Program-made: the position numbers and the translations under genes
Notes under the pieces: model-generated
Told to the model about the DNA's origin: nothing
The model's input: the letters and a program-made list of their open reading frames with translations, nothing else
Databases searched by the model: none
Shown here: piece after piece, positions 1 through 64,000 of the stretch
Layout: the number at the start of each line of letters is the position of its first letter
Numbering within the stretch: position 1 is the first letter of the stretch
Source of the DNA: a virus
Virus record (IMG/VR): IMGVR_UViG_3300017818_000007
Coordinates: 117,868 to 181,867 of that record
Strand: one strand, 5' to 3'
Length of the DNA: 64,000 nt

Positions 1-2
1 TG

Positions 3-3000
3 CCACAAGGACCAGATCCTGTATCAATTAGTGGCGATCCTGGAAACACACAAAGCGAATACTCAGTTTCTAATAGCGGAGAAAACTCATTTGTGTTTAC
101 TCCAAACGGGTTTAGTGAAAACCCAACAGTAATTTTATACAGAGGCGGCACATATAAGTTTAAAGTAAATGCTCAAGGGCATCCTTTCTTTATTAAAACA
201 GCCAACACAGTAGGCATTGGTGACCAATACAACAACGGTGTTGAAAACAATGGTGCTGAACAAGGAACAATTACATTTACAGTTCCAGTTGATGCTCCAG
301 ACTTGCTTTATTATGCTTGTCAATATCATCAAAGTATGCAAGGTGTACTTGAAATTAGAAATACCTCTGATGATTTAAGTATTGATGTTGAAGAAGATAT
401 TATTAGTAAGGCAACATTTAAAAGTGCAAACGGTGTACAGTTAACAAATGGTATGAAAGTTAATTTTGTTGGAGATGTTTTACCAACAAAATACAGAAAT
501 AAAAATTGGTATGTTGAAGGTGTAGGCGAAAGTATTGTTTTAATTGACGAAACAGAACTTGATACTCCTGAACTTTATGCTAAAAATGAAGAATATGAGT
601 TTGATGTTGATCCGTTTGACGATACTCCTTATGATGATACAGAAAATAGTCCTTTAACAGCAGAATATATTACAATTAATAGATCAAGTAAGGATAAAAA
701 TCCTTGGTCACGGTATAATAGATGGGTACATAAAGATGTAATTGAATTAAGTGCAGAGTATAATAATACTTCTCCTGTGCTTGATGAAAATTATAGAGCA
801 GTAAGACCTATTATTGAATTTAAACCTAACTTAAAACTTGTAAACTTTGGTACTAATGGTATTGGTAATATTGACTTAATTGACACTGATACTAAAGATG
901 CTATGAGTGATGTTGAAGGGTCATTTGGATACCACGTAGACGAAGTTCTTTTACGTAAAGGTATGCGTGTTATTTTTAATGCAGATCCTGACATTACAGT
1001 AAAAGGTAAAGTATACGAAGTTGACTTTGTTGAACATAACGGTGTTAAAAGAGTACATCTTGAAGAAGTATATGAACCGTTAGTTAATGACAGTGTTGTT
1101 GCAACATCGGGCGAAACACACCAAGGGTCAAGTTGGCACTTTGACGGTACTAGTTGGATTAATGGTCAACAAAAGACAATATTAAATCAAAGTCCTTTGT
1201 TTGATCTTTATGATAGTGCAGGTAATAGTTTTGCTGATACAGATTATTACTTTTCATCTACATTTAATGGGAATAAACTTGCAAGTTATAAGATTGGAAC
1301 AGGATCAGATGACCCTGTTTTAGGATTTCCTATTGCATATCAAAACATTAATAATGTTGGTGATATTACATTTGAGTTTAATTGGGACGACGGGTTGTTT
1401 ACTTACCAAGAAGGAACAACACAAAAGACAGTTGATACTGCAAGTGGACTAGTAAAAGATTATGCTAAAGATAAGTTTATTAGTGGATGGGAACTTGTTA
1501 AAGGAAAACAAACTGTTCAACGTATTTTACAAGTAGTCGATACTGTAATTGACACTGACACTGTTGCAGTTAACGCAATTAATCAACCTCATAAGTATGA
1601 TCTAGACATTGTAGTTGAATATAATGGTAAGACATATAAAGAAACAACAGATTTTGAAAAGGTTATTGATAGAGAAAGACAAATTTATGAACTTAAATTT
1701 AATTCTATAATTCCTCAAGGAACACGAATTACTTTAAAAATTAAAACAAATCAAAAACCAAACGAAAATGGGTTTTATGAACCGCCTATTAACTTAACTA
1801 ATAATAGTGAAAACAATGATCTTAAAACATTTACATTAGGTAGTGTTAGTGATCACTTTAAAACTATATTCCAAAACAATAGTTTTATTACAGGTAATTC
1901 TGTAGGTCCTAATAACTCTCGTGATATTAGCGAGATTCATTTAGATGGTAGCAGATATGTAAAACACAAAGGCAGTGTTTTACCTGCAATTATGTTTTTA
2001 GTTCAAGAAAATTTAAACTTTGTTAATTCAATGCGTAAAAACGCAAATGATTACAACTTCTTTAAAGATCAGTTTATTGAAAAGGCTGGAGAAATTGAAA
2101 GAACAACTAGTGTTGCAAATGATGTTGATAAAATTTTATACGAATTAGGTTCAAATAAGATTACAACGTCTCCGTACTTCTATTCTGACATGGCTGGCTT
2201 TGGTAGAAAAGTTGAACGTTTAGAATTTGAAGTTAAAAACGGAACTCAAAATGTTTTTGCAATTAATAATGCATTTGATACAACAAAAGTAAGTGATCGT
2301 GCAGTTTATGTTTACCTAAATGATGTACAACTTTATTTAGATGCAGACTATGAGTTTGATGCAGTAGACAATACTGTCACAATTAAAAAAGAATTATCAG
2401 TTGGAGACAAAGTTAAGGTTAACGATTATGATACAACAGGTAATGTTATTCCTCATTCTCCTACTAAATTAGGTTTATATCCAGCATATGTTCCAGAAAT
2501 TTTTGTAGATAGCAGTTATATTAATCCTACAAAGGTAATCCAAGGACACGACGGATCAATAACAAAAGCATATAACGACGAAAGAGATGAATTAATTCTT
2601 GAATTAGAAAAAAGAATTTATAATAACCTTAAAGTAAAATACAATCGTGATGTTTTTGATATTCTTAAGGAACAACCTGGACATTATAGACCAGATGCTT
2701 ATACCAGAGACGAATTTAATAAAGTTTTAAGGACTGATTTTGGTTATTGGAAGAGTTTATTTGATGTAGATTTTGAAACTAACAATGTTTCTCAGAGCGG
2801 TGACGCATTTACATATAACTTCAACACAATGATCAATTTACAAGATCAAAAACTTCCAGGAAACTGGAGAGCAATTTATAAAGATTATTTTGATACAGAT
2901 CGCCCTCACACACATCCATGGGAAATGTTAGGTATTACTCTTAAACCTACATGGTGGGACGAACAGTATGGTGAAGCACCATATACTAGTGGTAATAACT

Positions 3001-6000
3001 TGTTATGGAACGACATTGAACGCGGTTTAGTTAGAGATCCTAACGGAACAAAAATTTATCCTGCATATGCAAGACCTAATTTGTCTAAAAATTTACCTGT
3101 TGACGAATACGGTGAGTTGATTGATCCTAGCAAAATCAATATTGTAAAAGCAATTTTTATTACAGAAATTAAAAATGCTTGGAAATTTGGTGACGAAGGC
3201 CCAGCAGAAACTGCTTGGAGAAAGTCAAGTTGGTTTCCGTTTGCATTACAAGTAGCAGTAGGCTTAACAAAACCAGCACAATACTTTGGTAGTTTATTCG
3301 ATGTTAACCAAAACGAAATTACACCAAGTGGAAACGTTGTTTATGCAGATAATGGAAAAATCTTTAGTCTTAAAGAAGCAAAAATTAAAGACTTAAGATT
3401 TAACAATGAACGTTTCTTAGGTTTAGGTTATCATGTTCCTATTGTAGAATACATTAAAAGTTTTGATAAAGATGTAAAAGAAACATTTTACGATTATCTT
3501 ACAAATACATCAAGCAACTTAACATACAAGTTAGGTGGATTTGCAAACAAAAATAGATTGCGTGTATTAGCAGAAAGTTCAAATCCTAATACAGCAGATA
3601 ATAGTATTTTCTTACCAAGTGAAAACTACCAACTTACATTAAGAAAAAGTAATCCTATAAGAAATGTAAGAGTTTCAGGTATTATTGTTGAAAAAACAGC
3701 AAAAGGATTTTTAGTTAGAGGTTATGATAATATTAAACCTTGGTTTAGCATTTATAAGCCTAAGCATGGAAAGAATGATATTGCTGTAAATGTAGGTGGC
3801 AAACAAGCAAAATTTGTTATTTGGGATTCAGAGAAGTTTTATGGAAAAGGACAGATTGTAGAATTTGGTGGAGAATATTATAGAGTTTCAATTAACCATA
3901 CATCAACTGAAACTTTTGATAATAGCAAGTTTACAAAACTTGGAGAGTTGCCGGTCACTGGCGGAACAGAAGTTGCAAAAGCAAAAGCATTTGAATCTAA
4001 AATAACTGAAGTGTCTTATGGAACAGTATATCCTAGAGCACAAGAGGTATATGACGTTATTTTAGGATATCAAGAATACCTAAAAGAACAAGGTTTTGTA
4101 TTTGATATATTCCAACGTGAAACAGCAACAATTCAAGACTGGGATTTATCTGGTAGAGAGTTTTTGTATTGGACAACACAGAATTGGGCAGAAGGCAGTG
4201 TTATTTCACTAAGTCCTTTTGCAGATAGTTTAAGTTTTGAATACAAGTATGCTACTGTTGACAATGTTTTAAACAGTTTTTATGAATACAGTATCTTAAG
4301 TGCTAACGGAACTCCACTACCAAAAGACAATATTAGTATTGTTAGAGGTTCAGGCAAGTTTAATATAACAACAAAGAATACACAACGAGGTATTTTCTTT
4401 GCTGTGTTAAATCTTGTACAATGGGAACACATTGTAGTCTTTGATGATAAGAGTCAATTTGGCGATGTGATATATGATCAAGAAGCAGGATACAGACAAA
4501 AACGTATTAAATTAGTTGGATTCAAAACAAGTGAATGGGATGGTGATTATGTAAGTCCGGGTTTTGTGTTTGACGAAGCGGTAGTAGCAGATTACATTGA
4601 TGGTAAAGATTATAATCTTGGTGATGTTGTAAGACACAAGAGTAAGTTTTACAGTGCTAAGAAGTTTTTACCAGCCACAAAAGCATTTAATTTTAGTGAA
4701 TGGGTGTTTATAGGAGATAAACCTGTTGCTGAGTTATTGCCTAACTTGGACTATAAAGCAAGTTCATACGAAGATTTTTATAGTTTAGAAAGTGAAAACT
4801 TTGACAGTGAAACTACTAAACTGAGCCAACACTTAACAGGTTATCAAAAGAGATTATATCTTGATAATATGGTTAGAGATGATATTGCTCAGTATAAGTT
4901 TTATTCAGGATTTATTAAAGAAAAAGGTACAAGAAACTCTTTAGAAAAATTAAATCGTTTAACTATTGACGGAACGTCAACTGATCTAAGCATTACAGAT
5001 AACTGGGCAATTAAGATTGGATCTTTAGGTAGTGGATCTACAACAAAAGAACTTGAAGTAGTTTTAAGTGAAAAAGATAATGTTGAGAATCCACAAGCAT
5101 ACGAATTTGTGACTGCAAAAACTTCAAATTCAGATACAAATACTATAGAATTATTGTCAAGCGATTTAACATTAAAACCAGATAACTTTAGTGTTGATGT
5201 TTGGAAAAACTTTGATACAACACAAGACGGTGTAAGTCTTAATTCAATACAAAAAATACCAACAGCGGGTTTTGCTAGGTTAGATGATGTTGATCACACA
5301 GTGTTTAACAGTGAAGACTTGTTAACAGATACTACACTTCCTACTTTAAATGAGGGAGCATCTGTATGGGTAGCACGTGATAAAAGTGATACATGGAACA
5401 TTTATCGTTTAACTGCTAATCGTGCAAGACTAGTACAAACAGAAGATAACCAAGTGTCGGTTGATAATGGTACCATAACTTTACATACAAATATACCTCA
5501 TGGATTAAAAGAAGGCGATACTATTGTTATCAAACAATTTGATAATCAAATTAACGGAACACATTTAGTTAATAGTGTTTTAGGATTAACTTCTTTTACT
5601 ATTACAACAGAATTATTAACTATTACACTTGCAGAAGATAGTGCTTCAGGTACAATACTAGAACTATTACCTGTTCGTGTAAGTAGTCCTGACAAGATTA
5701 ATGATATTAAAGACGTAGCAGAATTTGCTGAAGGAACAAAGATATGGGCCGACGATGTTAGTGACGGTACTTGGAGAGTTTTTGAGAAAACAAAAGCATA
5801 TGCTGAAAATCAAGTTCAACTTATTGCTAGTGATGCAAAAACTTATGCTTCAACTGTAAAATACGGTGACCAAGGAAGAACTATTGTTGTTGGTAATCCA
5901 GGACAAACTGTTGAAGGTGCTGTTTTAATTCTTAGACGTAAATTTAATACGGACATTAGCACACTAGAAGGAAGTTCTGGTTTTAATATTAGTGAAAGCC

Positions 6001-9000
6001 TTGTAGACCAATTAGTTTCACCATCAGTACCGGCCGGTCTAGGTTCAAGTCTTAGTTTATCGCAAACAACTAATACATTAGTTGCTGGTGCTCCGTATGC
6101 TTCTTTTGTAAAAACAATTACAGATCCTGAAAAGCCAAGATTTAATACTGTTGGCTTAACAGGTACGGCTAGCAGTTATACAAAGCAAGGCGTTGTTAAA
6201 CTGTCAACATATAATTCTTTAACAAACATTTATGATCCAACACATATTATTGCAAGTCCAAGACCTGCAAACAACGAAGAATTTGGTTCAAGTGTTGCTG
6301 TAAGTGATACAAGAATGGTAGTTGGTGCTCCTGGCAGAGCAAATAACGCTGGCGGAGTATATGTTTATACAAAAGGAACAAACGGTTGGGATCTAAATGC
6401 AGAATGGGAATTAACTGCTCCATCTGATCATCCTAATGATAGATTTGGTGAAAAACTTACAGCCTCAATCGACATGAGTATACTTGCAGTTTCTGCAAGG
6501 AACAAAGAACTTGAGTCTGATAGTACAACAGTGGATACCGGTGCTGTTTACATTTACTATTGGGACGGTACAGGTTATAATTTAATTCAAACTATTGATG
6601 CAACAACAGTTGACACTCTTAGCAAATCAGATTTATTTGGATCTTCGTTGTCGTTAAGTAGAAATGGCGATGTGCTTGTTATTGGTGCACCATTAAATGA
6701 TGATGACAGTATTAACCAAGGTGCTGTTTATGTATTTGAAAGACAGACACAAGGTGACTCAACGGTTGGTTATACATATAAACAAAAACTTACAAGTCCA
6801 ACTAACCTAAGTGGCGAGCAGTTTGGTAGCAATGTTTCAGTTAACCCAGACGGTTTAAGTTTTGCAGTTGCAGGTAAAGGCGGATCGAATAGTGCTATTA
6901 CTTTGTTTGATAATAACGAAACTTCTTTTGATGCTAAATCAACATCGTTTGTAGATACAGAAACAGGTACTGGTAGTGTTTATACATTTACAAAGTTAGG
7001 CACAACATATGTATTTGGACAAAAACTTTCAAGCAACGATTTACAATCAAATGATGCATTTGGTACAGGTCTCGATTTTAGTACAACAAGTTTATATGTA
7101 GGTGCACCATACTTTACATACAATGGCAACGACACTGGTATGCTATTTGTGTATCAGAAAGAAGCGTCAGCAGGCTGGAATACTCTAAGACAACAAGACA
7201 GTTTAACTGATCCGTTTAGTGTTGAGAAGGTAATGACGTATCGTACAGATTCACAAACTGTTGTTGATTTCTTAGAGACTATTGATCCTATAAAAGGAAA
7301 AATACCTTACATTGCAGAAACAGAAATATCTTATAAGAGTGCAAAAGATCCTGCAATTTACACAACAAGTGATCGTGGCCTTAATGTTGATCCAGATACA
7401 AACTGGGGTGCAACACACGTAGGACAAATTTGGTGGGATCTAAGTACTGTAAGATATGTTTGGTACGAGCAAGGCGATGTTGAATTTAGAAAAAATAACT
7501 GGGGTGGATTGTTCCCAGGGTCAACTATTGATATTTACGAATGGGTAGAAAGCGATCTAAGTCCAGAAGAATGGAATAATATTTCAGATACAACAGAAGG
7601 TATTGCGGCAGGATTTAGTGGACAATCAAAATACGATAACAATACTTTTGTATTAAAGCGTGTCTATGACACAGCAACAAATAACTTTGTTAATAGATAT
7701 TATTATTGGGTTAAAAATAATGTACTTTTACCACAACGTGTTAGTACACAAATTGCTGTTGGTCTAAGTGAAAAGATTGCAGTTGATACACGTCGTTTGC
7801 CTGCAAACGAAATCGCAAACGTAATTGCAGATCCTAAAGGATATGGTATCAAATCGTTGCAACTTTTAGACACTAACAGTTTTAGTCTTACCAATATTAA
7901 AACAAGTTTAAGTGATACTGACGTAAGTTTAAATGTACAATATAAGAAAGTAAAAACTAATATTCCAAATCATAATAGTTGGTTATTATTAGATGAACAA
8001 CAAAGAGACAAAATTGACAATCCATTGTTAATTAAAAAACTTTATGACAGTTTAGTAGGTTTTGATGATGCAGGTAATACAGTACCAGACTCACAACTTC
8101 CTGTACAGAAAAAATATGGTTTACAAATTAGACCAAGACAAAGTATGTTTGTTAATAGACTGGGTGCATTAGAAACACTGTTTACATACACAAATAACTT
8201 ACTTGCAAAAAGTAGAATCGTTGATGAAAAAGATCTAAGTGGTTTATTTGAATCAGACCCTCAGCCAACACTAATTAGTGGGCGTTATGATGTTAAGGTT
8301 GATGAGTTTAATGATTTAGATAATATTAAAACACAGGATTTAGAACAAGCAACTGCTACTGCAACTATTGTTAACGGTAGAGTTAAATCTGTAGAAATTA
8401 CAAATCCTGGGTTTGGTTATGTTAATCCGCCAAACATTGAAATTACAACAGAAGGTTGGGGAGCAAAATTCCAATCAACTATTGATGCTCAAGGAAGAGT
8501 CACATCAATTGAAGTGTTAAAAGAAGGACGAGATTATACAAACGGTGCTATTAGAATTAGACCATTCAAAGTTCTTGTTGATGCTGATAGTACAGCAAAC
8601 AACTATTGGACAATGTATGAATGGAATATTGCATCTGAAGAATGGATTAGAACAAACACACAAACATATGATGTTAATAGATTTTGGAAATATAAAGATT
8701 ATGTTGTTGAAGGATTTGATGTTGACAGCATTATAGACTTTAAAGTTGCAGAGCCTTATCTATTAAAAACAATTACTCCTGCAACAGGACAACTAGTTGA
8801 GGTAGCAAATGTTGGCGATGGAAACAAAATTGTTCTTAGAAAAGTTGAAGCAAATGGTACTTGGAATAATAATTATGATATTTTGTTCAAAGCAAATAGC
8901 ACAATTGAATTTGATTCGTCTATCTATGATTACACAGGACTAAACTTTGGCTTTGCTGGCGCAGAAAACTTTGATATTAACTTATATGATGAACAGCCAA

Positions 9001-12000
9001 CACAAGAAACACGAGTTATTTTAGAACAACTGTATTCAAACATTTTTGTTGATGACTTAAAATATGCTTGGAATGAATTTTTGTTTACAGCAATACGTTA
9101 TGCAATCAGTGAGCAAACATTTACTGACTGGGCATTTAAAACAAGTTTAATCAGTGTTAAGAATAATTTAGGCGGCTTTACTAAAAAGATTAATTATAAT
9201 CTTGACGATCCTGGAAATATACAATCTTACGTTGAAGAAATTAAACCATATAGTGTCACAATTAAAGACATGATTACAAGTTATAATAATCGTGAGCCTA
9301 GCAGTATTTTTACTACTGACTTTGATTTGCCAAGCCGTTATAACGAAACCAAAGAAGAGTTTGAAGTATTAAACGAAACAAGCGAAGATATAACAACTGA
9401 GCCATTTAATCAATGGTTTGAAAATTATAAATTTAATGTTGACAGCATTGAAATTGCTGAAGCAGGAGACGGGTATACACAAAGACCGATTGTTGTAATT
9501 AGCGGCGGAAGAGAAGATAAACCTGCTATTGTACAAACAACACCGTTTAGGGTTCTTACTACTACAGACTATGACAACTTGTATGTGTACGTTAATACTA
9601 CAAGTGTTCCGGATCACTTCTTTAATACAACAAATGTAGTTTCACAAAATCTTGTTTATCAGATTCCAAGATTCCCAAGTGTTCCTGAAGTTAAAGTTCC
9701 AACACCACTAGGTGCTATTGGTGTAGCAGTTAACGGAGTAAGTATTTTTAATCCTAGTTCTGCAGTCACAGAATTACTTAATGGTACAACATATACTGTA
9801 AATGCAGTATTCAGTCATGAAGAATTAGGTATTGATGACGGTTCAGGTCATCCGCAAGAAGATGGAATTTACCATTACCATAGCGATCCTACCTTTATGT
9901 ACACTAAGGATCCAGAGAATCACAGTCCAATATTAGGATACGCCTTTGACGGTTTCCCAATTTATGGACCGTACGGTTTTATTGCTACAAATGATAAAAC
10001 AGTTAAATTAATTAAATCAAGTTATAAACTTAGAACAACACCTCGTGCAGATGGTAGTATGCCAACTGGAAGATACAACGAGGATTATGAGTTTGTACAA
10101 GGACACGGAGACCTAGACGAAAACAACGGTAGGTTTATTCAAACACCAGAATATCCACAAGGAACATACGCTTACTTTATTACAGTTGACGAGCAAGATG
10201 ACGGCACGTTTGAACCAGCGTTCCCATACATTGTTGGACCTCATTATCACGGTAATCCGTTGTTGCCTAATGGCAACGGTAAAATGCCACAAAGCGGAAA
10301 CATTAATGCAACAGCAACAGCATATATCAGTAGAAACAAAGTAAACAAAATTGTTGTTGAAAATCCAGGCGCTGGTTATGTAAGTGCTCCAACAGTCACA
10401 ATTACTGGTGGAGGTAATACAACATCAACAGCAAAAGCAGTTGCAATTCTTGAAAACAATAAAGTTAGAACAAATAAAACTGAACTTAAATTTGATAGAA
10501 TTGGCTCAACAGGTATTATTGCTGATGAAGAATACGTTGATACATATACCGCTAAGTCAGGACAAGTTGTTTATAAACTAACATACTTGCCTACGTTAGA
10601 TAAAAGAGATTTTGTTATCAGTGTGAATAATGAAGCAATTTTTGTTGAAAACTTTGATGTAAGCATTGAAACATTAACTGATAAAACTTATAAAAAACAA
10701 GTTGGCCATGTTGTATTAAAAACATTGCCAAAAGAGCGTTCAACAGTCACAATTACATATAAGAAAAATGTAAAACTAATGAACGCTATTGATAGAATTA
10801 ATTATTTCTATGAACCAACAGCAGGTATGCCTGGTAAAGATCCGGCACAATTAATGTATGGTATCGAATATCCGGGCGTTAAAGTACAAGGTTTAGACTT
10901 TGGTGTTAGTGTTGGGTGGGACGGCCTTCCATGGTTTAGTCATGGTTGGGATACGTTCTCAGGAGGCAACACAGATTATGCTTTCCGTGCAGACGGAGTT
11001 GCAACATCGTTTACATTACCTTATGCACCTAAACAGGATGAAAAGATTAACGTTTATTTTGATGGTGTAAGGCAAGATCCAAATAACACTCCAACTATTG
11101 TTGGCGACGGGAACACAACAGCATTTACTTTAAATGCAACACCAGCAGATGGTGTGTTGGTAGTATTCCGTCCAGAAGATTCAGATGGTAGTGTTGTTCC
11201 AACAGATGTAAACAACTTAGACACAATTATACAAGGTGGTAATTTATCTTATAGTACTGCAACTGGACAAACACCAGAAGAAATTAGTTTACAAGGCGAC
11301 GGGTTTGTCACACCAGATACGTCACACGCACCTGAAGAAGTTGTACCAGGTCAAATATTTGATTCGCTGGCTATGAAAGTTTATAATGCTCCAGCAGATG
11401 GTTCTCCAATTATTGACATTACAAGACATTGGGGAGATGGAAGTGAAACTGAGTTTACGTTTAACAAATATCCCGGAACAACAGACAGTATTATAGTCAC
11501 AGTAGGGCCTAGTAATCCTACACCAACAGATACTGCAACAAGATCAAGTTCTTATAAAGTTTTAGGAACTGACTACACTGTTGACTATGCTAATAAAAAA
11601 ATTACACTTACATCAGCACCAACTGATGGACAGTTAGTCACAATTACAACTTTAAATGTTGGCGGTAGCGAGATACTTGAAAAAGAAGATTATGTTGACT
11701 CAGGTGATAGTACTATTGAGTTTGTTTTAACAAGTAAGTACGAAGATGTTAAAAGTGCGTTTGTCACAGTTAATGGTGTAAAACAAGACTATGCTATCTA
11801 TGAAGATACTGATAGTGGTAGTGCAAAAATTGTTTTAACAAATCCTCCAAACGATATGACAGATGCCGTGACACAGATTACTGCATTAAGCGGATTAGAA
11901 AAAACATACAGTGAAGTAGTCACAGACGTACACGAAGTACAAAGCAACGACGGTCTTACATATGACTTATCTCAGGTACCTGGAAATATTGAACCGTTCC

Positions 12001-27635: not shown

Positions 27636-28211
27636 CTAGAATTTGGCTAAAAATTGGTTTTGCATATCCATTTTGGCTTGCAAATACGAGTAAGATTCTT
27701 CCAATTCGAGTGGAGAATATTCCCCTGGCTTAAACACATATTCTACTGCTGAACTTGGAAGTTTTGAAGTTTTAAGACCATCTCCAGCATCAATTACATA
27801 CGGAAGTAAGTCTGTTTTGGATATAATTGCTACTGCATCTTTATCGCAAATTAAAAGAAACTCTGCATATGATTCCGGAAGTGTTCGTCCTTCACTACTG
27901 CCACGCGAGTTCATAAGTTGTAGTTCTGCAACGTGTTTTCTTGGTTGTTTCTTTTTAGAAGTAAAAAGACTACCATCAGTGTATTTCATTTCGATTGTAA
28001 TACCGTTAGGTCCAATGTGATCAACACCTTCTTCATTTACATATCGTAAATCTTGATTACTAAAAAGTTCTAGTGCTTTTTCAAATAAATCACTTTTATC
28101 AAAACGAAGTTTACGTTCATTTAGTTCGTCACCCACTTGGTCTACAAGTGTCACAAACTTATTCCAATCTACGTTCCATCTTAGCCAATGTGCTAGTTCT
28201 TTTGTATTCAT
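27636..28211 (-). CDS. Putative PD-(D/E)xK restriction-endonuclease-like protein
   Basis: E-x-A...EGVD-x7-IEMK spacing resembles a type II REase catalytic core; no search run. Confidence 0.45.
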   Translation of the reverse strand: MNTKELAHWLRWNVDWNKFVTLVDQVGDELNERKLRFDKSDLFEKALELFSNQDLRYVNEEGVDHIGPNGITIEMKYTDGSLFTSKKKQPRKHVAELQLMNSRGSSEGRTLPESYAEFLLICDKDAVAIISKTDLLPYVIDAGDGLKTSKLPSSAVEYVFKPGEYSPLELEESYSYLQAKMDMQNQFLAKF

Positions 28212-29026
28212 TTTTTAGAATTAATCCATTTAATTACTTGTTCGCTGTTCCCTGCGAAAATTCTATCTGAGTGTTCGGCAATCAAAGCATTCATTTCATC
28301 TAGATGATTTTCTCCTGCTTCACCGTCTACTTGTACAAAGAACAATTTTTTATCATTGTGTTTATCACAGTATTTTTTTGACTCTTGAATAAAAGATTTT
28401 GATTCACCTACTTGATGTACAGAAGTCACAGATCCTTCTGGACCACTGTATTTTAAAAACCCATAAGCATCTAAACTAGGAATATATGCGTCTACACTTC
28501 TTGCAAACTTTTTGTTTTCAACATCTTTTTTATTTTGTATCTCACCGTTAGCAACAGTGTATTCACCGTTAACTGGTTTATCAACAGCAATACCTGTATA
28601 CTTACGAAGCATTTCTAACTGTACATCTTCGTCAATTGATTGTCTTGTTGCGTCTCGACAGTAGTCAATTTGAATCCACGGGTGAGAGTCTAAATATATT
28701 TGTGACATTTTTTTGATGTCTGTAAACGTAATTTTATCTTCGTCACTAATACCTCTGTAAGAACAGTTCTTTGAAATACGTGAAAAGATAGTGTTCATAA
28801 CATTAGTGACATTGCGTCTTGTTGGAGTATCAATTGTTTTATCTCGACACTTCCATTTAATTTCGTTTTTAGAATTACGGGTCTTTTCAACTGCTAGTTC
28901 ATTTCCAGCAATTATTTCCCAAATTGATTTATCTTCTATTAGGTTAGATTGATTAGTTGCTTCACGACTTTTAATAATATTGTGAGCACCGTTTGTATTT
29001 TCGATTATGATTTGTTTTGACACCAT
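28208..29026 (-). CDS. Putative restriction-endonuclease-like protein (272 aa)
   Basis: C-terminal RSVDAY...GFLKY..G.S..HQ..E pattern recalls viral REase-like nucleases; weak call. Confidence 0.35.
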   Translation of the reverse strand: MVSKQIIIENTNGAHNIIKSREATNQSNLIEDKSIWEIIAGNELAVEKTRNSKNEIKWKCRDKTIDTPTRRNVTNVMNTIFSRISKNCSYRGISDEDKITFTDIKKMSQIYLDSHPWIQIDYCRDATRQSIDEDVQLEMLRKYTGIAVDKPVNGEYTVANGEIQNKKDVENKKFARSVDAYIPSLDAYGFLKYSGPEGSVTSVHQVGESKSFIQESKKYCDKHNDKKLFFVQVDGEAGENHLDEMNALIAEHSDRIFAGNSEQVIKWINSKK

Positions 29027-29053
29027 AATTCCCCATTTCTTAATTTATAGTAT

Positions 29054-29082
29054 ATTTTAGCAAATTATAATGTAGATGTCAA
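29054..29082 (-). promoter_or_regulatory. sigma70-type promoter for the two nuclease-like genes
   Basis: TTGACA-17 nt-TAAAAT with TG extension. Confidence 0.7.
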
Positions 29083-29102
29083 GTCTTTTGGTAAAATAGA
29101 AT

Positions 29103-29122
29103 GGGGGATCCGAAGATCCCCC
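29103..29122 (-). terminator. Intrinsic terminator after the MoxR gene
   Basis: GGGGGATC-TTCG-GATCCCCC hairpin followed by ATTCTATTTT. Confidence 0.8.
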
Positions 29123-29128
29123 TAGTAG

Positions 29129-30223
29129 TTAGGATGCCATTGCGGCTTGAACATACTTGCCGTATTTGTCATGAAAACGATCAAAGTTTTTAAGATCCTT
29201 TGGACTGAATGGAAGTTTGTAAGTTGTAATTGCTACCCTTACACCCATCACAACAAGTTCAGTTTCAAAGTTATCCATCATAAATCCAAAGAAGTTATCT
29301 GCCATAGCATTCCACCCTTTTTCTTTACGTTTGAACGCTTCTTGAAGTTCATAGCACATTGAAACAGTTAACGAGTACATAGCACTGATATCTGTAGTCT
29401 CCATGCTTTTCACTTTACCGGACAAGATGTCCGTAGGATTTGGCAGTTTTGAAGCAACCTTACGGTGTGCCGCAAACTTTACTGCCAAGCCTTCACCAAC
29501 GGCGCCTGCCACGAGGTCTGTCAACGTGTTTTCTGACAGGTCATCGTCGAGAAGTTCGCTCACGAAACTCCACGAACGTGGAGTAGCAAATGCACGTGAA
29601 CTGCTCTTAGGATCAAAGTCATATAGATCCTGTTTTGCAAAAGAGCAATAACCAACTACATCTGCGTGAATTTTGTTTTCAGTTGCCCACTGCAACCAAT
29701 CTTCAAAGTCTACTCGCATTTCTAAATGCAAGAAACGGTTAGCCAACGGAGCCGGCATACGATAAGTGACACCTTTATCAGTTTCACGATTACCTGCCGC
29801 TACAATCATTACGTTGTCTGGAAGTTTATAAGTACCAACTCTACGATTAAGAACTAGTTGGTATGCCGCCGCTTGTACTGCCGGCGATGCAGAGTTCATT
29901 TCGTCCATAAACAGAACGATATGTTTAAACTGTTTTGCCATTTCTTCGTCTGGAAGTTCTACTGGCGGTGCCCATTTCATTGTATTATCATTGGCCGCGT
30001 AATAAGGCATACCTTTGATATCTGTTGGATCCCACAATGAAAGTCGAATATCAATTAGATGTGAATCTTCAAAACTGTTAGTAATTTGACTAACAATATC
30101 TGATTTACCAATGCCTGGAGGACCCCATAAAAATACTGGACGGCCTTTAGCCATTGCGTGTTTAAGTGCCACTTTCGCTTCGTTTGGAGTGACTGTACGT
30201 GCTTCTGTTGCTTGTGTTGACAT
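29129..30223 (-). CDS. MoxR-family AAA+ ATPase
   Basis: Walker A GPPGIGKS, Walker B LFMDE, AAGNR, PLANRF, ATPRSW. Confidence 0.9.
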   Translation of the reverse strand: MSTQATEARTVTPNEAKVALKHAMAKGRPVFLWGPPGIGKSDIVSQITNSFEDSHLIDIRLSLWDPTDIKGMPYYAANDNTMKWAPPVELPDEEMAKQFKHIVLFMDEMNSASPAVQAAAYQLVLNRRVGTYKLPDNVMIVAAGNRETDKGVTYRMPAPLANRFLHLEMRVDFEDWLQWATENKIHADVVGYCSFAKQDLYDFDPKSSSRAFATPRSWSFVSELLDDDLSENTLTDLVAGAVGEGLAVKFAAHRKVASKLPNPTDILSGKVKSMETTDISAMYSLTVSMCYELQEAFKRKEKGWNAMADNFFGFMMDNFETELVVMGVRVAITTYKLPFSPKDLKNFDRFHDKYGKYVQAAMAS

Positions 30224-33792: not shown

Positions 33793-34686
33793 TCAGGTGC
33801 CCCAGGCGTTGCCGAAGATGTCGACGTGTAGTCTGGGTGTATAGCGCCAACCTCGCTCCATTGCCAATGTTGCGACTCCTCTAGTGTTGAGTTGGTATTC
33901 TTCCGACCTACCCCCAAGCGGCATAACATAGACTGGAACATCGATTCCTTCGCTACGGTACGCTTCAACGGCTTTGGAAACTTCATCCACATCTTCTTTG
34001 GTAGCCACAACAAACTTGAAATACATACTACTATTAGGTACATCGTAGTACTGCCTAGCAATATCAGGCTTGATAGCAGTATCCCAAGGCTCTCCGCTAA
34101 CGGAAAGTTTTGGACTGCACGACCAAGTGATATGAAATGATCTTTCGTTGTCGAGCCACTCTCTGAAATCATCTCTAAGAGTTTGTGTTGTGTTTGTTTC
34201 AAACGTGACATTTTTTAAGTCCTCCATACGAGGGTGTTTAAATAGATCCATGTATAACCTCTGCCACCCTAGCAAAGGTTCACCACCAGTTAAAATAAAA
34301 TGAACATCTTGTCCATTATCCATTGTCCACTTACCTTGTGGAGTAAGACCTAATACATAATCAACTACTTCGTCAACTGTATGGTCTTTCATATATTTTT
34401 TAAATTCAGGATATATACTTGCATACGTATCACAGCCTGTGTGAACAATAGGCAAATCCTCGAACTTATTTATCTTGTCTAAAATACCGTCATCTAGCAA
34501 TGCTTTAACTTCTGGATTATATTTAATACCTTGTTCTAACTTCTCTGCTCTGTTAGGATGCTTGTCTAAACCAAAGTTCATACAACGAAAATTACAACCA
34601 AAGGTACGTAAAAAGACGGAAGGTACACCTACAAAGCGACCTTCTCCTTGCACACTATAAAATGCTTCACTATATCTTAATTTCAT
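33793..34686 (-). CDS. queE: 7-carboxy-7-deazaguanine synthase (radical SAM)
   Basis: FYSVQGEG..VGVPSVFLRTFGC, CDT, TGGEPL, ETN, SPKL, PRLHVDIFGN. Confidence 0.88.
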   Translation of the reverse strand: MKLRYSEAFYSVQGEGRFVGVPSVFLRTFGCNFRCMNFGLDKHPNRAEKLEQGIKYNPEVKALLDDGILDKINKFEDLPIVHTGCDTYASIYPEFKKYMKDHTVDEVVDYVLGLTPQGKWTMDNGQDVHFILTGGEPLLGWQRLYMDLFKHPRMEDLKNVTFETNTTQTLRDDFREWLDNERSFHITWSCSPKLSVSGEPWDTAIKPDIARQYYDVPNSSMYFKFVVATKEDVDEVSKAVEAYRSEGIDVPVYVMPLGGRSEEYQLNTRGVATLAMERGWRYTPRLHVDIFGNAWGT

Positions 34687-38795: not shown

Positions 38796-38797
38796 AA

Positions 38798-39484
38798 TTA
38801 CCTCGGAGCAAATTCCTGTTGTAATTTAATATTATCCATAAACTCTTTTTTAGTTCCTGGATCATCTTTAAAACTACCTTTTAGTACAGTTGTTTGTGTA
38901 AGTGAACTATGTGCCATAATGCCACGGTTCTCACAACAACCGTGTGTTGCTTGAATGTAAACACCTAAGTGTTTTGCATCTGTAGCCTTTTCAATTTCAC
39001 GTGCAATATCATTTGCAAGTTCTTCTTGTAGTGTACCACGTCTAGCACACCATTGTGCAATGCGTGTATATTTAGAAAGTCCAATAACTTTACCATTAGG
39101 AATAACACCAATGTATGCTACACCAGTCACTGGTTGGTGGTGATGTGAACAAACACTTTTAAGTTCAGAACGAACTACAAGCATACCTTTATATGCATCT
39201 TCGCCGTCGTTTGGAAATGCAGTTGCTGGCGGAATAGTATCATAACGACCTTGCATAAGTTCATTGTAATACATTTTAGCAAGTCGTCGTGCTGTACCTT
39301 GTGAGTTAGGATCGTTATGACGATCAATAATTAGTGCATCTAGTACACCTTCAAACTTTTCAGCGGCTTCATTAATTAATTCTTCTTTTTCACCATCTTG
39401 GATAAAAGCAGAAATATTGTCGCCTGCCCAATATCGTTTGTTTGCTTCTTTTAATCTTTGCGTTATTTCAGCATATTTTTTCAT
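38798..39484 (-). CDS. folE: GTP cyclohydrolase I
   Basis: SVCSHHHQP, GLSKYTRI, LQEELA, ATHGCC..RG. Confidence 0.95.
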   Translation of the reverse strand: MKKYAEITQRLKEANKRYWAGDNISAFIQDGEKEELINEAAEKFEGVLDALIIDRHNDPNSQGTARRLAKMYYNELMQGRYDTIPPATAFPNDGEDAYKGMLVVRSELKSVCSHHHQPVTGVAYIGVIPNGKVIGLSKYTRIAQWCARRGTLQEELANDIAREIEKATDAKHLGVYIQATHGCCENRGIMAHSSLTQTTVLKGSFKDDPGTKKEFMDNIKLQQEFAPR

Positions 39485-41831: not shown

Positions 41832-42013
41832 TTTGTTAGCCTATCAATTTGATCTTTAATATAAAGTTTTGTTTTCTTTAATTTTAATAAAAGTGACTTA
41901 TGACCAAAGTCTCTATATATACTACGCTCTTTTTCTAACTCGTCAACCTTTTTTGAATAGTATTCGTGTTCTTTGGTTAACTTTTTTACAGTTTTGTTTT
42001 TTATTTTTGACAT
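41828..42013 (-). CDS. Small coiled-coil protein (DUF465-like, 61 aa)
   Basis: H....KVDELEK...LKLKK.KL.IKDQI. Confidence 0.45.
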   Translation of the reverse strand: MSKIKNKTVKKLTKEHEYYSKKVDELEKERSIYRDFGHKSLLLKLKKTKLYIKDQIDRLTK

Positions 42014-43470
42014 TATGCCTCCTCAAATAAGTTCGCATATTGCGTACTTGCGTTTACAGTTTTTTTACCCGTTGCTCCCCTAGTGCCGATAATTGACATC
42101 CAGAATCTACTAAACTCTTCTATGATCGCATTCGCTTCGTCTCTGTTGTCAGTTGCAAATATCGCTTCCACAACATCTTTAAAAAATAACCTGTCAAAAC
42201 GTTCTTCGACAAGCATCGCTGGAATTCTACCTGCGTCATATTCTCTGTTGGCTTCTTGTACTGCATTAATGTGACTCCATACGTTATGACCCATTTGGAT
42301 CGCATAAGAAAAACTATCCCATGATGTTTTTCCTTCTTTGCCTATTTTATTTAGGTCGCCTGGCGCATAGATACAAATATCTTTTGCACTTAGTCCTTGT
42401 GTAATTGGCGAATCTTTAAAACTAGTGTGTTTGCCTTCACGTACAAATGCTTGACCAAATGGTGTTGTATCAGTTGCTAAAGCCTTGTCGTCAATGCTGG
42501 GTACCATTCTGTATACCCATTTACTTCTGTCTTGTGTTTCAAGTTCACAATAGATTTGACCATTTGCTGTTGCTAGGAACGGACTAGCACAGTCAAATGT
42601 AATCGTAAAGTTTTCATTGTGATACTTGCGAACTGCTCTTTGAATATCAGTTAAGAGCGTTGCCCACTCTAGTTTACTTGTGCCTAAGAAGTGCATAAAG
42701 TCATGTATTCCTTTTTCAAGCAATCCATCAAAACGTAATGCTACTAATCTTTTAAGAACAAGGTGTACGTCACACATATTTTGTCCACCCATCGACCATC
42801 CATTAAAGTGTGTGTCTGGATATTTCTTAGGATCACAGTAGTCCTTCATCTGCTGATACCAATCTTCTGCATCAGCATGATTTTCACCTTGTAGTACGTT
42901 TAAGAATTTACAAGCACCTGTACGATTCTTCATAAAGTAGTCGTTGTTAATGCGTGTGGCATTTACTGCTTCTTGATAAGTTGTAATGCCTGTTGCTTTT
43001 TGACCTGCTTCAGATCTAGATACCCAAGCAGGAATATCAAGGATCATACCATAGTCCATATAAGCATCCATCCACGCAAGAACTTGCTCACGTTTCTTTT
43101 GTGCTTTAGGACAGTTAGGATCTTTCCAATCACCTTCCCATACGCCTTTACCAATCTGGAAACCACCTGAATCACCTAACAGCCAACTATTCTCACGATC
43201 ACGTTCACGCACCATAAGTTCTTTAGGTGCGTCCTTGTTTATATCAAGTTCTGCGTGTCCTGCCGAATATAATGTCCAATGATATTGAAAGATACCTTTT
43301 TGACGATTAAGCCAATTAAGACCTTCCATATCGTTATTAGGAAAAGGAATACGTGACTTATCTACATATTCTTCGCGACGTTGCTTACCAATAAACGTAG
43401 CATAGAAGCCACTAAGTGCCGGAAGATATATTGCGTAGTCCTTTTGTTCTGCTGTTAAGTCAGTTCTCAA
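42013..43470 (-). CDS. dpdA: TGT-like deoxyguanine transglycosylase (DpdA, probably DpdA2-type)
   Basis: LGDSGGFQI, MILDIP, FLNVLQG, GW.MGG, HFLGTS, TFDCASP TGT-fold motifs; neighbours queD-like, folE and queE. Confidence 0.82.
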   Translation of the reverse strand: MRTDLTAEQKDYAIYLPALSGFYATFIGKQRREEYVDKSRIPFPNNDMEGLNWLNRQKGIFQYHWTLYSAGHAELDINKDAPKELMVRERDRENSWLLGDSGGFQIGKGVWEGDWKDPNCPKAQKKREQVLAWMDAYMDYGMILDIPAWVSRSEAGQKATGITTYQEAVNATRINNDYFMKNRTGACKFLNVLQGENHADAEDWYQQMKDYCDPKKYPDTHFNGWSMGGQNMCDVHLVLKRLVALRFDGLLEKGIHDFMHFLGTSKLEWATLLTDIQRAVRKYHNENFTITFDCASPFLATANGQIYCELETQDRSKWVYRMVPSIDDKALATDTTPFGQAFVREGKHTSFKDSPITQGLSAKDICIYAPGDLNKIGKEGKTSWDSFSYAIQMGHNVWSHINAVQEANREYDAGRIPAMLVEERFDRLFFKDVVEAIFATDNRDEANAIIEEFSRFWMSIIGTRGATGKKTVNASTQYANLFEEA

Positions 43471-44235: not shown

Positions 44236-44264
44236 ATTATACTTAAAAAATCATTCAAAGTCAA
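44236..44264 (-). promoter_or_regulatory. sigma70 promoter for the clamp/dpdA operon
   Basis: TTGACT-17 nt-TATAAT overlapping the polymerase 3' end. Confidence 0.75.
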
Positions 44265-46923
44265 ATAAATTGTTGAATGTATTCTTCTGTTCGGTTGATT
44301 TAATATCCCAATCCAAAACGCCTAACAAGTTGCCTAGTTTGTTATCAATAATAACTGATTCCATTTCGTCATCGTTAAACGGAAGTTCTTGAAACCAGGG
44401 TGGTATTCTTAGTTCGTCTGTAGGATATGCAACCGAGGTATATCCCATTGGATTGTTCTTTAGTTTACAAACGATAACTTTCATACCATCAACGATATTC
44501 ATTGAATAGTTGTCACCGTTCATCTCCTTTAGTTTGTTCCAGTTAATACTTGCTCTTACGTGACCAGGCATATTAACTTTACCAAATTTTCTTTCTTTAG
44601 CAAGATAGTCTGTGATGTTGTTTGCACGTTTTGGAGAACCTTTTTCCCAACCAGGTCTTGCTTTAAATTGTGTGCGGAAGTCTGTAATTTTATCAAGAAT
44701 TTCTGGTTCTTGGGCACCAGTTAGCACAGCCAATAATATCTCACTTAAAAAGTCCTGCATAAACACAGGAGTATCACTACGTTTAAGATCAAGACCCATT
44801 GCTTTTACTTTACCTGGTTTACCGTCAACGTCCATTCTTGCACCTTCATTATCATAGATAAGAATTGCATAACGTTTCTTTGTGATGAATAATCCTTTTT
44901 CACCAACAACTTCTCTACCAGCGGCAATAACACCTGTGCTTCTTGGTTTAGGACAATGAAACGCATCACTCATAAACTGTGGAAACGATTTGTTTGCTTC
45001 GTCACAAATTTGATCATATAGTGCAATGATACTATCTTTATCCCACGGAATATCGCCTTTTTCAATTTCAGGACGTAAACTTGTGTAAGCACTAAAATAA
45101 CAAGAGTCAGTATCACCGTAAATAATTGCTTTGCCTACGTGATCGTAATCACCTGTAATAATTTCATTAACTCTTGATGACATATGTTTAACAATGGCTC
45201 TACCTGTTAGTGTAGTACTCTGCCCAATACGTGGATCAAAAAAGCGACAACCAGGATTAAGAATAGCACCATAAAGAGAGTTAAGATTAATCTTCTTAAC
45301 CAATTGTCGTTTATCCCAAAATGCTTCTTCAACTTTATTTCCTGCTTCTTGTGCTTGGCGTTTCTTTGCCTGCATTTCTTTACGTTCTGCATACCAACGC
45401 TTTAACAGTCCTGGAATAATACCATCATATTCTGTAGTAAAGATAGTACCGTTAGCACTTAACATCCACGGCTGATTACTTTCAAATATTAATCTATAAA
45501 CTTCTGCCGCACTCATTACATCTTCTTCACCGTTTTCCCATACAACAGTAATTTGTTTGTCTTTACGTTCTTCCATGACAAACTCATATTCAAGACTTCC
45601 AAAGCGACCTTCCCACGCTGACGCAAATGACTTTTTCTTAAGAGTCATTTCATTACGTACCATTTCTTCAGTATATTCTGGCTTCAGTTGTCCTACAACA
45701 GTTGCTGGATCCATATTAAGTGATCTAATAACAGATGGATACAGTGAGTTCAAGTCCATTGAGCCGATCCAATCGTGCAATCCTTTTTTAGGATATGCAA
45801 CATACGCACCAGCCGCAGGCTCTGAACCTGGCTCTCTGTGTACTCTATTAGGAACAACAAAACCTCTATGGTGTGCTTCGTTAATAATTGCTTGTTCTGT
45901 CACAGCAACAGCACCCATTGTTGTTGGCAACAATACAGTGTTTGCGTGTGCAAGTTCGTTTGCAAGATCAATAAACTTTAACTTTTTGTCAAGTTTATCG
46001 AGTAGTGCAACGTCTTGCCTGTTATATTCGATGAATGTTTTAAAGTCATTGTTGTATAACTGATCAAGTGTGCCTTCGTAAACAGTTTTACGTTCGCCTA
46101 CTTCCATTTCACCAATAGCATCTAGTCGATATGTGTGGCGTTCTTCGTATGTGTACTTACGATATAATTCTAAACTATCTAAGTGTTGTCTTCCTACAAG
46201 GTCGTATGTTTCTTGCTCACGGCCAAACTTTTCATAAGTTCTTTTCTTTGGATATTGATCCCACAAGCAAAACCGCTTTGTATCTTCTTTTGAAAGTACA
46301 CGAGTAATACGGTTAACTGTGTAAGGAATATCATAACCTTCACTGTTCCAACCACTTAAGATATCTGCGTCTTGTATTAAGTCTAAGAACGTGTCAAGCA
46401 TTTCTGCTTCACTTTCAAACAAGTGTGTATTATCAAAATCTTTTACAGCAAATTTAGCATCTTCCATGCTCATACCTTTTGGAGGAAGTGCTAATGTAAT
46501 AAGACTATTCAACCATTGTAAGTGTACTGTAATTGCTGTAATGGCTGTAAATGGATCTTCAGGTGAACTATAACCACGTTCAGGATCAAAGTCAACCTCA
46601 ATATCGAAAAACGCAACGTGTAGTGTTGGAGCATCGATACCTAAATAATTTTCTTCAAGCAATCGATATACAGGATTAACATCTGCTTCAAATAGTCCGC
46701 GATGTTTGTTAATTTTTTGTTCTTTAAGGAAGTCTTTCCAACTTTTACATACTACTCTACTAACTGTATCGCCCATAGTAGACTTGTGCTTACCACGAGG
46801 ATCTTTATAATAGAATTGATATCTTGCTGGATATTCTCGGAAATCTCTTTCGCCGTTTTTATTACGTTCAACGACTTTGATAATATCTTTGTCTCTGTCC
46901 CACAGAGCATCTACATAACTCAT
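44251..46923 (-). CDS. Family B DNA polymerase with 3'-5' exonuclease
   Basis: FFDIE, GWNS.GYD, DLNSLYPS, KINLNSLYG and YGDTDS motifs; no intein-sized insertion. Confidence 0.97.
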   Translation of the reverse strand: MSYVDALWDRDKDIIKVVERNKNGERDFREYPARYQFYYKDPRGKHKSTMGDTVSRVVCKSWKDFLKEQKINKHRGLFEADVNPVYRLLEENYLGIDAPTLHVAFFDIEVDFDPERGYSSPEDPFTAITAITVHLQWLNSLITLALPPKGMSMEDAKFAVKDFDNTHLFESEAEMLDTFLDLIQDADILSGWNSEGYDIPYTVNRITRVLSKEDTKRFCLWDQYPKKRTYEKFGREQETYDLVGRQHLDSLELYRKYTYEERHTYRLDAIGEMEVGERKTVYEGTLDQLYNNDFKTFIEYNRQDVALLDKLDKKLKFIDLANELAHANTVLLPTTMGAVAVTEQAIINEAHHRGFVVPNRVHREPGSEPAAGAYVAYPKKGLHDWIGSMDLNSLYPSVIRSLNMDPATVVGQLKPEYTEEMVRNEMTLKKKSFASAWEGRFGSLEYEFVMEERKDKQITVVWENGEEDVMSAAEVYRLIFESNQPWMLSANGTIFTTEYDGIIPGLLKRWYAERKEMQAKKRQAQEAGNKVEEAFWDKRQLVKKINLNSLYGAILNPGCRFFDPRIGQSTTLTGRAIVKHMSSRVNEIITGDYDHVGKAIIYGDTDSCYFSAYTSLRPEIEKGDIPWDKDSIIALYDQICDEANKSFPQFMSDAFHCPKPRSTGVIAAGREVVGEKGLFITKKRYAILIYDNEGARMDVDGKPGKVKAMGLDLKRSDTPVFMQDFLSEILLAVLTGAQEPEILDKITDFRTQFKARPGWEKGSPKRANNITDYLAKERKFGKVNMPGHVRASINWNKLKEMNGDNYSMNIVDGMKVIVCKLKNNPMGYTSVAYPTDELRIPPWFQELPFNDDEMESVIIDNKLGNLLGVLDWDIKSTEQKNTFNNLFDFE

Positions 46924-63713: not shown

Positions 63714-63999
63714 GATACTTCTCAATTATTAGTTGTTGCTTAATCATGTATGCACGTATTTGTGCAAAGTTTTTAGCAAGTGTTTCGTAGTCGTCATCGC
63801 TTAAACCAAACAGCACAGGATCTTTACCTTGCTCTTTCATTTTAGCAAACACTTCTTCTGCGTTCTCACTATGGATAATAATGAACTTTAGTTCTTCCAT
63901 TTTTGGAGTCGCAGGATTCTCTAGATTCAGAGGTGCTCTTTTAACCTCAGTCTTGAAAATATCTAACTTGGATACCGTACTACAACTAGTAAGGAACGT
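63664..63999 (-). CDS. Lipoprotein, o-spanin (Rz1/PseT.2)-like; start lies beyond the window
   Basis: Frame is open to the window edge: ...TFLTSCSTVSK... with LTSC lipobox, Pro-rich linker and helical C-terminus. Confidence 0.6.
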   Translation of the reverse strand, partial: TFLTSCSTVSKLDIFKTEVKRAPLNLENPATPKMEELKFIIIHSENAEEVFAKMKEQGKDPVLFGLSDDDYETLAKNFAQIRAYMIKQQLIIEKYREYYEGDSTTDGSDPK

Positions 64000-64000
64000 A

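Follow-up and report, generated by a model that had tools for sequence, protein, structure and literature searches.

Several short palindromes are absent from the DNA of an uncultured marine jumbo phage that carries a lone restriction-endonuclease-like gene

We analysed a 64,000-nucleotide stretch of viral DNA (positions 117,868 to 181,867 of IMG/VR record IMGVR_UViG_3300017818_000007; hereafter the window), which makes up the final 64 kb of one contig of 181,867 bp and has a G+C content of 35.5%. Two of its features concern us here. The first is the absence, over the entire window (1..64000, irrespective of strand) and indeed over the whole contig, of the word sets AGCT, GCWGC, GTWAC, RCATGY, HGCGCD and RCGCGY, as established by exact counts and codon-preserving shuffles. 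The second is an orphan gene for a 272-amino-acid protein resembling restriction endonucleases (28208..29026, minus strand), which its fold, the methylase linkage of its family and the depletion of GTWAC in other carriers make a candidate GTWAC-specific nuclease. The contig, approximately 50% complete according to CheckV, encodes a family B (T4-like) DNA polymerase (44251..46923, minus strand; PHROG 262, E = 5e-196) with 52% identity to its counterpart in Sinorhizobium phage Phosso and 46% to the one in Agrobacterium phage Atu_ph07, and a gp23-type capsid protein with 75% identity to Phosso and next-best matches in PA5oct- and Rak2-like jumbo phages. Fibre genes, ClpP/Clp ATPase, DnaJ, thyX and an open reading frame (ORF) of 4,642 codons are also present. 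Based on the T4-type polymerase, the gp23-type capsid protein and the jumbo-phage matches, the contig represents about half of the genome of an uncultured marine jumbo phage with a T4-like core. A 10-kb query of window DNA gave no near match among deposited phage genomes, and no tRNA genes were found in the window. Using the polymerase as marker, we collected 67 related IMG/VR contigs (polymerase 85-92% identical); four long relatives are referred to as G001-G004, 63 further polymerase loci were pooled, and four loci of a sister clade (L072-L075) were included. Such relatives are very frequent in marine and estuarine metagenomes, Tara Oceans samples among them.

Exact counting returned no copy of AGCT, GCWGC or GTWAC in the window, as an earlier note on this DNA, made from the sequence alone, had read by eye; GATC (237 copies), GANTC (122), GGCC (41) and GTSAC (116) are common, again as described there. 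The numbers expected for AGCT, GCWGC and GTWAC were 209, 41 and 135 from base composition, and 205, 53 and 157 from a first-order Markov model. Permuting synonymous codons inside each of 189 crudely called genes gave 179±10, 47±4 and 123±8, and the lowest values among 100 such shuffles were 158, 39 and 105; preservation of the codons thus does not reproduce the absence. Over the whole contig the three words are likewise at zero, for 530, 169 and 365 expected from codon shuffles. The comparison with Markov and codon-shuffled nulls that the note had proposed therefore leaves the zeros of the window far below both, and those of the contig far below the codon shuffles. The note had however counted too few words, since at least five or six are purged: an unbiased k-mer scan combined with flank tables revealed three more sets without a single copy on the contig, namely RCATGY (100 expected; 303 other CATG sites are kept), HGCGCD (70 expected; all 63 GCGC sites are GGCGC or GCGCC) and RCGCGY (22 expected; mainly ACGCGT, with 0 for approximately 16). 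Minimum shuffle values on the contig were 483, 152, 332, 79, 55 and 12 for AGCT, GCWGC, GTWAC, RCATGY, HGCGCD and RCGCGY, respectively. All six sets consist of palindromic 4-6-mers, i.e. type II-like words. An AflIII-type specificity (ACRYGT) as the joint cause of the missing ACATGT and ACGCGT was ruled out, as ACACGT occurs 29 times and ACGTGT 56 times.

Other words are depleted without being absent. The non-palindromic AGCCC/GGGCT is reduced approximately 5-fold (codon-shuffle null) to 9-fold (Markov) on the contig. Against the Markov model, 13 copies for 113 expected were found here, and 7 for 75, 4 for 56, 3 for 42 and 1 for 38 in G001-G004, corresponding to a clade-wide depletion of about 9- to 38-fold; 12 of the 13 copies surviving in the present genome read GAGCCC or AGCCCC, whereas pooled data for the clade do not follow so clean a rule. 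Further examples on the contig are GTCTCA/TGAGAC (4 for 40-70 expected), GCAAGC/GCTTGC (10 for approximately 60), GTGCAC (12 for 33-42), CCGA/TCGG (169 for about 375-415) and CTATAG (9 for approximately 35).

Codon choice bends around the missing words. On the contig, Val preceding Thr is encoded by GTC or GTG in 200 of 200 cases, though GTA and GTT make up 86% of all Val codons, and Ala preceding Ala by GCC or GCG in 176 of 176. GCT is never used for Ala following a codon that ends in A (0 of 1165, compared with 40% following other codons), and Gly-Asn is written GGTAAT 104 times and GGTAAC not once; the rules that the note had formulated for these four situations are thus exact over the contig. 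The destinations of such recoding are over-represented, with 248 GCSGC for 71 expected (3.5-fold) and 342 GTSAC for 203 (1.7-fold). A codon alignment of the polymerase gene revealed that GTWAC sites of the relatives are changed here at differing positions of the motif, for instance GTTAC to GTTAT (position 5), GTTAC to GTGAC (position 3) or GTT to ATT (Val to Ile). Replacements so heterogeneous are the mark of selection, unlike a uniform miscall. The sites appear to have been removed mainly through synonymous and conservative codon changes. Complete elimination of several short palindromes, through selection for DNA that escapes restriction-type endonucleases, is well supported, and the recoding lends strong support to the selection by sequence-specific nucleases put forward in the note; its suggestion that these might be the phage's own enzymes has found a candidate for GTWAC only.

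The purges are layered among the relatives. AGCT, GCWGC and RCGCGY are at zero in all of them (67 contigs for AGCT and GCWGC), and HGCGCD accounts for 3 of 254 GCGC sites in 1.22 Mb of pooled sequence. RCATGY is at zero in approximately 18 lineages and normal elsewhere; one lineage (L013) lacks all CATG (0 for 80 expected), several, e.g. G001 (L076-L081; 0 for 94), lack all GCGC, and three (L009-L011) lack ACWGT, with ACSGT raised. Among the relatives examined, GTWAC is at zero in the present genome only: G001-G004 contain 352, 241, 195 and 164 copies for 259, 185, 154 and 148 expected, and the 63 pooled loci 1208 for 1383. Since GTWAC is normal in every relative, its purge is recent and peculiar to this lineage. 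The selection that the note had called long-term can accordingly be so described for AGCT and GCWGC, and not for GTWAC. AGCT is normal in the sister clade, whose polymerase is 68% identical, and GCGC and CGCG are nearly absent there. No purge is seen in the cultured cousins Phosso and Atu_ph07, and the trait is therefore not a property of the wider jumbo-phage group. The purges were thus acquired stepwise. As their distribution differs lineage by lineage, the trait is dynamic and lineage-specific, as would result from an arms race with sequence-specific nucleases.

All ORFs of the contig were compared with G001-G004, the 63 other polymerase loci and the four sister-clade loci. Only a few ORFs in the syntenic region were without any homologue in the relatives, and the 272-amino-acid ORF is one of them; of more than 70 related sequences, one genome alone shows the GTWAC purge, and it alone carries this gene. 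The gene lies between a conserved gene for a 191-amino-acid protein (27636..28211, minus strand; 70-83% identical in G001-G004, without Pfam match and not a methylase) and a conserved AAA ATPase gene (29129..30223, minus strand; 85-89% identical in relatives, matching Pfam AAA_3 and AAA families). The gap between these flanking genes (28212-29128 in the window) is empty in G004 (100 nt), holds an HNH gene in G002 (26318-27161) and G003 (38388-39012), and in G001 (82216-83561) holds an HNH gene together with an unrelated ORF of 249 amino acids. This variable content identifies the junction as an insertion hot spot. The 249-amino-acid cargo ORF of G001, the genome with the full GCGC purge, was considered as a possible counterpart; it is unrelated to the 272-amino-acid family, and its homologues are not found beside methylases. 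Directly upstream of the 272-amino-acid ORF lies a putative sigma-70-like promoter (29054..29082, minus strand; TTGACA, 17-nt spacer and TAAAAT, with a TG element), proposed from 11 of 12 consensus matches. Upstream of it, a GC-rich hairpin followed by a T run (29103..29122, minus strand) resembles a terminator closing the AAA-ATPase gene, so that the ORF looks like a transcription unit of its own. The ORF is full length and retains all family-invariant residues, and from its sequence the gene looks functional.

The 272-amino-acid protein matched no profile in Pfam, PADLOC or the other libraries searched. Its AlphaFold2 model, built from 43 sequences, has a pLDDT (predicted local distance difference test) score of 93.8. 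DNA-bound BstEII was the sole Foldseek match at E ≤ 0.001 (E = 1.6e-4, probability 1.00), followed by BsoBI, PspGI, MunI, Bse634I and EcoO109I, and VIA-align ranked PspGI (Z = 8.5) and BstEII (Z = 8.2, 217 residues aligned) ahead of Cfr10I, Bse634I, BsoBI, SgrAI and NgoMIV, mostly type II enzymes. The model thus assigns to the protein the PD-(D/E)xK fold of type II restriction enzymes, closest to PspGI and BstEII. D132, E133, D179, K192 and E208 are invariant in the 43 family sequences, and D179...K192...E208 presumably form the active site, judging from the spacing in enzymes of the Cfr10I/NgoMIV type. GTNAC forms part of the site cut by BstEII, GGTNACC, and the site cut by PspGI, CCWGG, has a central W.

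Sixty-one homologues of the protein were found in metagenomes. The 11 that were examined with their neighbours, from five unrelated, viral-looking contexts, are all followed 55-65 nt downstream by a PF01555 N6/N4 methylase gene (335-352 amino acids) and often preceded by an HNH gene; the HNH protein beside the closest homologue is 42% identical to that of the hot spot in G001-G003. The same methylase pairing is present in 7 of 9 further IMG/VR carriers. One methylase-linked homologue is 68% identical to the protein of the present phage. Overall, a homologue stands 55-70 nt upstream of a PF01555 N6/N4 methylase gene in 12 of 14 viral contig groups. No such partner was detected for the homologue at 10001-10807 of the 20.8-kb locus L118 (IMG/VR 3300017917_002425), in which GTWAC is 4-fold depleted (12 for 47). 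On the present contig, profile searches found no methylase of the PF00145, PF01555 or PF02086 families, and tblastn with three of the partner methylases gave no match. Phage-encoded DNA methylases were thus discarded for the contig, on which only sugar or small-molecule methyltransferase families were seen. As the family is normally linked to a methylase and the copy studied here is not, the gene is an orphan.

The family is tied to GTWAC by the composition of its carriers. GTWAC is depleted at least 3.5-fold in 10 of the 14 carrier groups (observed/expected 6/25, 12/52, 3/24, 2/37, 2/34, 2/22, 0/9, 9/43, 3/24 and 12/47), and GTSAC is near expectation throughout. The newest purge of this phage clade thus coincides with an orphan restriction-type gene from a GTWAC-tied family. 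It is on this association of gene and motif that the case for a phage-borne GTWAC nuclease is based; no such match of specificity was obtained for the other words.

We therefore consider it probable, though well short of certain, that the nuclease behind the GTWAC purge is the phage's own orphan enzyme and that the phage protects itself by being free of its sites. According to this scenario, the gene would have arrived on an HNH-associated cassette, either together with a methylase gene that disappeared when the genome had become free of sites, or at a time when pressure from a host system of the same kind had already driven the sites out. The enzyme would cut GTWAC and, being active and made early, would attack the DNA of the host or of a competing phage, to which the phage itself would be immune by absence of sites and not by methylation.

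Several observations weigh against such a role of the gene. The fold scores are moderate (Z of approximately 8; Foldseek template-modelling score, TM, of 0.36-0.38), and a Z of 7-8 may result from a common structural arrangement. Four of the 14 carrier groups show a GTWAC depletion of less than 2-fold or none (27/36, 5/8.9, 22/40 and 35/36), so that specificity may vary within the family. With about half of the genome on the contig, a distant methylase gene is possible. Alternatively, a host's own GTWAC system may have driven the purge and also been the source of the gene, which in the phage would then be a passenger. Finally, a scan of approximately 60 ORFs against Pfam, PHROG, NCBIfam and PADLOC yielded neither a nuclease nor a DNA methylase as a candidate for AGCT, GCWGC, RCATGY, GCGC or CGCG, though the 272-amino-acid protein, itself invisible to profile libraries, illustrates that such enzymes escape library scans. 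When gene presence near the polymerase was compared with the RCATGY purge, the signals were weak: a 111-amino-acid ORF (odds ratio approximately 5) and an ORF resembling 2-oxoglutarate (2OG)-Fe(II) oxygenases, which occurs in both purged sequences (2 of 2) and in none of the unpurged ones (0 of 4). An ORF of the latter type at 32714-33382 (minus strand) has counterparts in G001 and G004 only among the relatives, both purged of RCATGY, the numbers being small; another, at 24210-24743 (minus strand), has no homologue in the relatives.

The passenger scenario is part of a broader alternative, which we regard as possible but unlikely: that all purges, GTWAC included, represent classical avoidance of host restriction-modification systems, and that the phage gene is inactive or incidental and may have originated from a host or co-infecting phage with the same GTWAC system. 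Avoidance of orthodox type II systems is common in virulent double-stranded DNA phages (PMC6286503), and the patchiness of the RCATGY, CATG, GCGC and ACWGT purges among close relatives fits strain-specific host systems. For the five words without a phage-borne candidate, host systems are a natural explanation, because the methylomes of marine prokaryotes include AGCT, GCWGC, CGCG, GCGC, GTNAC and GTWAC (Hiraoka 2022, PMC8919816); the constancy of four purges throughout the clade would fit conserved host systems or conserved phage-borne nucleases. What this explanation accounts for poorly is that the GTWAC purge and the GTWAC-linked nuclease gene occur in the same single genome of more than 70 related sequences, and that the gene is full length, with intact family-invariant residues and its own promoter-like site.

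A further proposal, compatible with nucleases of either phage or host, starts from genes for a 7-deazaguanine modification. A gene for a 485-amino-acid DpdA-like protein (42013..43470, minus strand), by its structure model and its conservation in the clade a candidate for inserting 7-deazaguanine into DNA, is accompanied by a gene for GTP cyclohydrolase I (FolE; 38798..39484, minus strand; Pfam PF01227, E = 1.8e-40), the first step towards preQ0, and by a weak match to QueE, a putative radical S-adenosylmethionine (SAM) protein (33793..34686, minus strand; NCBIfam QueE, E = 2.5e-9, below cut-offs; Pfam Radical_SAM, E = 1.4e-4). QueC was not found on the contig, i.e. on about half of the genome, and a QueD-like gene was not confirmed there. 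The DpdA-like protein matched no Pfam (including PF01702), PHROG or NCBIfam profile, nor did 45 family members, and the family profile matched no PDB sequence. Its AlphaFold2 model (pLDDT 91.8) nonetheless predicts the triose-phosphate isomerase (TIM)-barrel fold of tRNA-guanine transglycosylases (TGT), as every listed Foldseek match was such an enzyme (probability 1.00, E of approximately 2e-6, TM 0.35-0.54), and the alignment consensus contains GDSGGFQ and LDxPT motifs. All three genes are kept in every relative, the DpdA-like protein at 84-93% identity. The sister clade L072-L075, composed of Tara and other marine contigs, has a DpdA-like protein 84% identical and an additional HhH-GPD glycosylase; further sugar-nucleotide genes (cytidylyltransferase, phosphomannomutase, epimerase) lie between its polymerase and DpdA-like genes.

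The proposal, which we put forward tentatively, is that 7-deazaguanine at G before purine (GA, GG, GGC) would protect the DNA, so that only sites that cannot be modified were deleted. The true enzymes would then be plain cutters of the 4-base type with the sites GCNGC, CATG, CGCG, GCGC and ACNGT. Such protection would explain why GCWGC and not GCSGC, RCATGY and not other CATG, RCGCGY and not other CGCG, and HGCGCD and not GGCGC are purged, as well as the purge of ACWGT and not ACSGT in one lineage. In its favour, the fully purged words are all without GA, GG, TC and CC, and every retained variant (GCGGC, GTGAC, ACGGT, CATGR, CGCGR, GGCGC) contains or is flanked by a G before purine. HGCGCD and RCGCGY, to our knowledge not known as enzyme specificities and not found in the three papers seen to mention GTWAC or ACWGT, would be accounted for by ordinary GCGC and CGCG cutters. 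Specificities of the TseI type (GCWGC) and the NspI type (RCATGY), on the other hand, exist and count against the proposal.

Phages with partial modification provide the precedent: the DpdA enzyme of phage CAjan modifies GA and GGC and leaves GC, GT and GGT contexts cuttable (Kot 2020, PMC7544227), and phage iggy is modified at GA only (PMC10484667). The present phage resembles both in the TGT-fold protein predicted next to FolE and QueE-like genes and in the G before purine of its retained variants; it differs in a protein too divergent for the Pfam TGT profile, in the missing QueC on this half of the genome and in a context rule with several exceptions, the modification itself and its context being predicted. 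A strict CAjan-type rule was ruled out, given that RCATGG is kept with any next base including T (23 copies of RCATGGT) and that GGCWGC is still purged. A 5' G rescues GCGC but not AGCT (GAGCT 0 for approximately 75), GCWGC (GGCWGC 0 for approximately 40) or GTWAC. GTWAC is better explained by a truly W-specific enzyme, since the depletion in unrelated carriers of the nuclease family concerns GTWAC and spares GTSAC. Despite their DpdA-like gene, L013 purges all CATG and G001 all GCGC, while AGCCC/GGGCT is depleted though it contains GG. Sites protectable on one strand or on both show no gradient either, observed/expected values being 0.00 or about 0.5-1.4. A link between the purges and the 7-deazaguanine genes of the clade is thus possible but weak. 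More speculative still is a two-layer defence in which the clade would modify protectable sites with G before purine and erase the other nuclease sites, and in which solitary restriction enzymes from HNH-associated cassettes would serve as weapons against host or rival DNA, harmless to a genome devoid of their targets; this we consider rather improbable.

Modified phage DNA can give motif-specific errors in some long-read assemblies, and an artefact was considered for that reason. No support was found for a technical origin of the zeros, with modified motifs systematically miscalled or misassembled, or for an origin in mutational bias and codon preference, and both can be dismissed almost entirely. 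The codon-preserving shuffles come nowhere near zero; an independent ENA assembly from another sample record (L112), which agrees with the contig at 99.97% identity over 11.9 kb, likewise lacks the words and contains the 272-amino-acid gene; the 67 contigs from many metagenomes share zeros for AGCT and GCWGC yet have normal GTWAC; homologous sites carry replacements of different kinds; and the reading frames are unbroken, even that of 4,642 codons.

The latter ORF, which starts upstream of the window and occupies its positions 3-13472 (plus strand), adjoins several fibre-like genes that have a common N-terminal module (PHROGs 15511 and 14394). TAAATA, the core of T4-type late promoters, is present on the contig at about half its expected number (126 for 250-290), and runs of seven A or T are 3-4-fold depleted (57 for about 190-220).

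Restriction-site avoidance itself is well documented; roughly one viral genome in ten shows complete or near-complete elimination of sites (Rusinov 2018, PMC6286503). The present case resembles those described there in that 4-6-bp type II-like palindromes were eliminated by synonymous recoding from a double-stranded DNA phage that does not look temperate. It differs in that 182 kb contain not one copy of five or six words, for which approximately 1,250 sites would be expected in all, that purges are stacked stepwise among close relatives and include the odd sets HGCGCD and RCGCGY, and that the best nuclease candidate for one word is borne by the phage and not by the host. Solitary type II restriction genes, likewise lacking an adjacent cognate methylase although their family is normally linked to one, have been surveyed in bacterial and archaeal genomes (Ershova 2012, PMC3488263), where many are fragments or have a distant methylase; the gene described here is full length and resides in a phage, in a genome without its inferred target. 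Compared with the PD-(D/E)xK enzymes that are the best structural matches of its model (BstEII, PspGI and the Cfr10I/NgoMIV/Bse634I group), the protein shows only 8-12% identity in structural alignments, has no Pfam match and would have a 5-bp target, GTWAC. Viral nucleases that spare the DNA of their own virus include T4 endonucleases II and IV, with hydroxymethylcytosine DNA, and the restriction-modification enzymes of chloroviruses. A further one is the archaeal virus nuclease HHPV4I (PMC10101028). Common to these and to the proposed phage enzyme is a virus-borne, sequence- or modification-selective nuclease that spares self-DNA; there, modification or methylation protects, or modified DNA of rivals is the target, whereas the protection proposed here is the total absence of sites. 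GTWAC matched no known methylase motif in REBASE according to a 2022 study of marine methylomes (PMC8919816). We found no paper in which a phage carries a restriction gene without methylase while its own genome lacks the presumed target altogether, and the proposed link between GTWAC and an enzyme is new here.

What is unusual here is the resolution: very close and abundant ocean phages show purges added one by one, and the newest, which removed approximately 365 GTWAC sites, coincides with the acquisition of a solitary restriction-type gene. Should the enzyme prove to cut GTWAC, this would be a virus with a restriction enzyme and no methylase, immune through the absence of sites; its gene family would be assigned to the word GTWAC, and genome-wide word statistics could assign specificities to uncharacterised nucleases of uncultured viruses. 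If modification and erasure of sites do act as two layers, the comparison of purged with retained variants would reveal the context of the modification as well as the specificities of marine nucleases, including a new GTWAC enzyme. The system thereby offers a concrete test of the joint action of partial base modification and site deletion.

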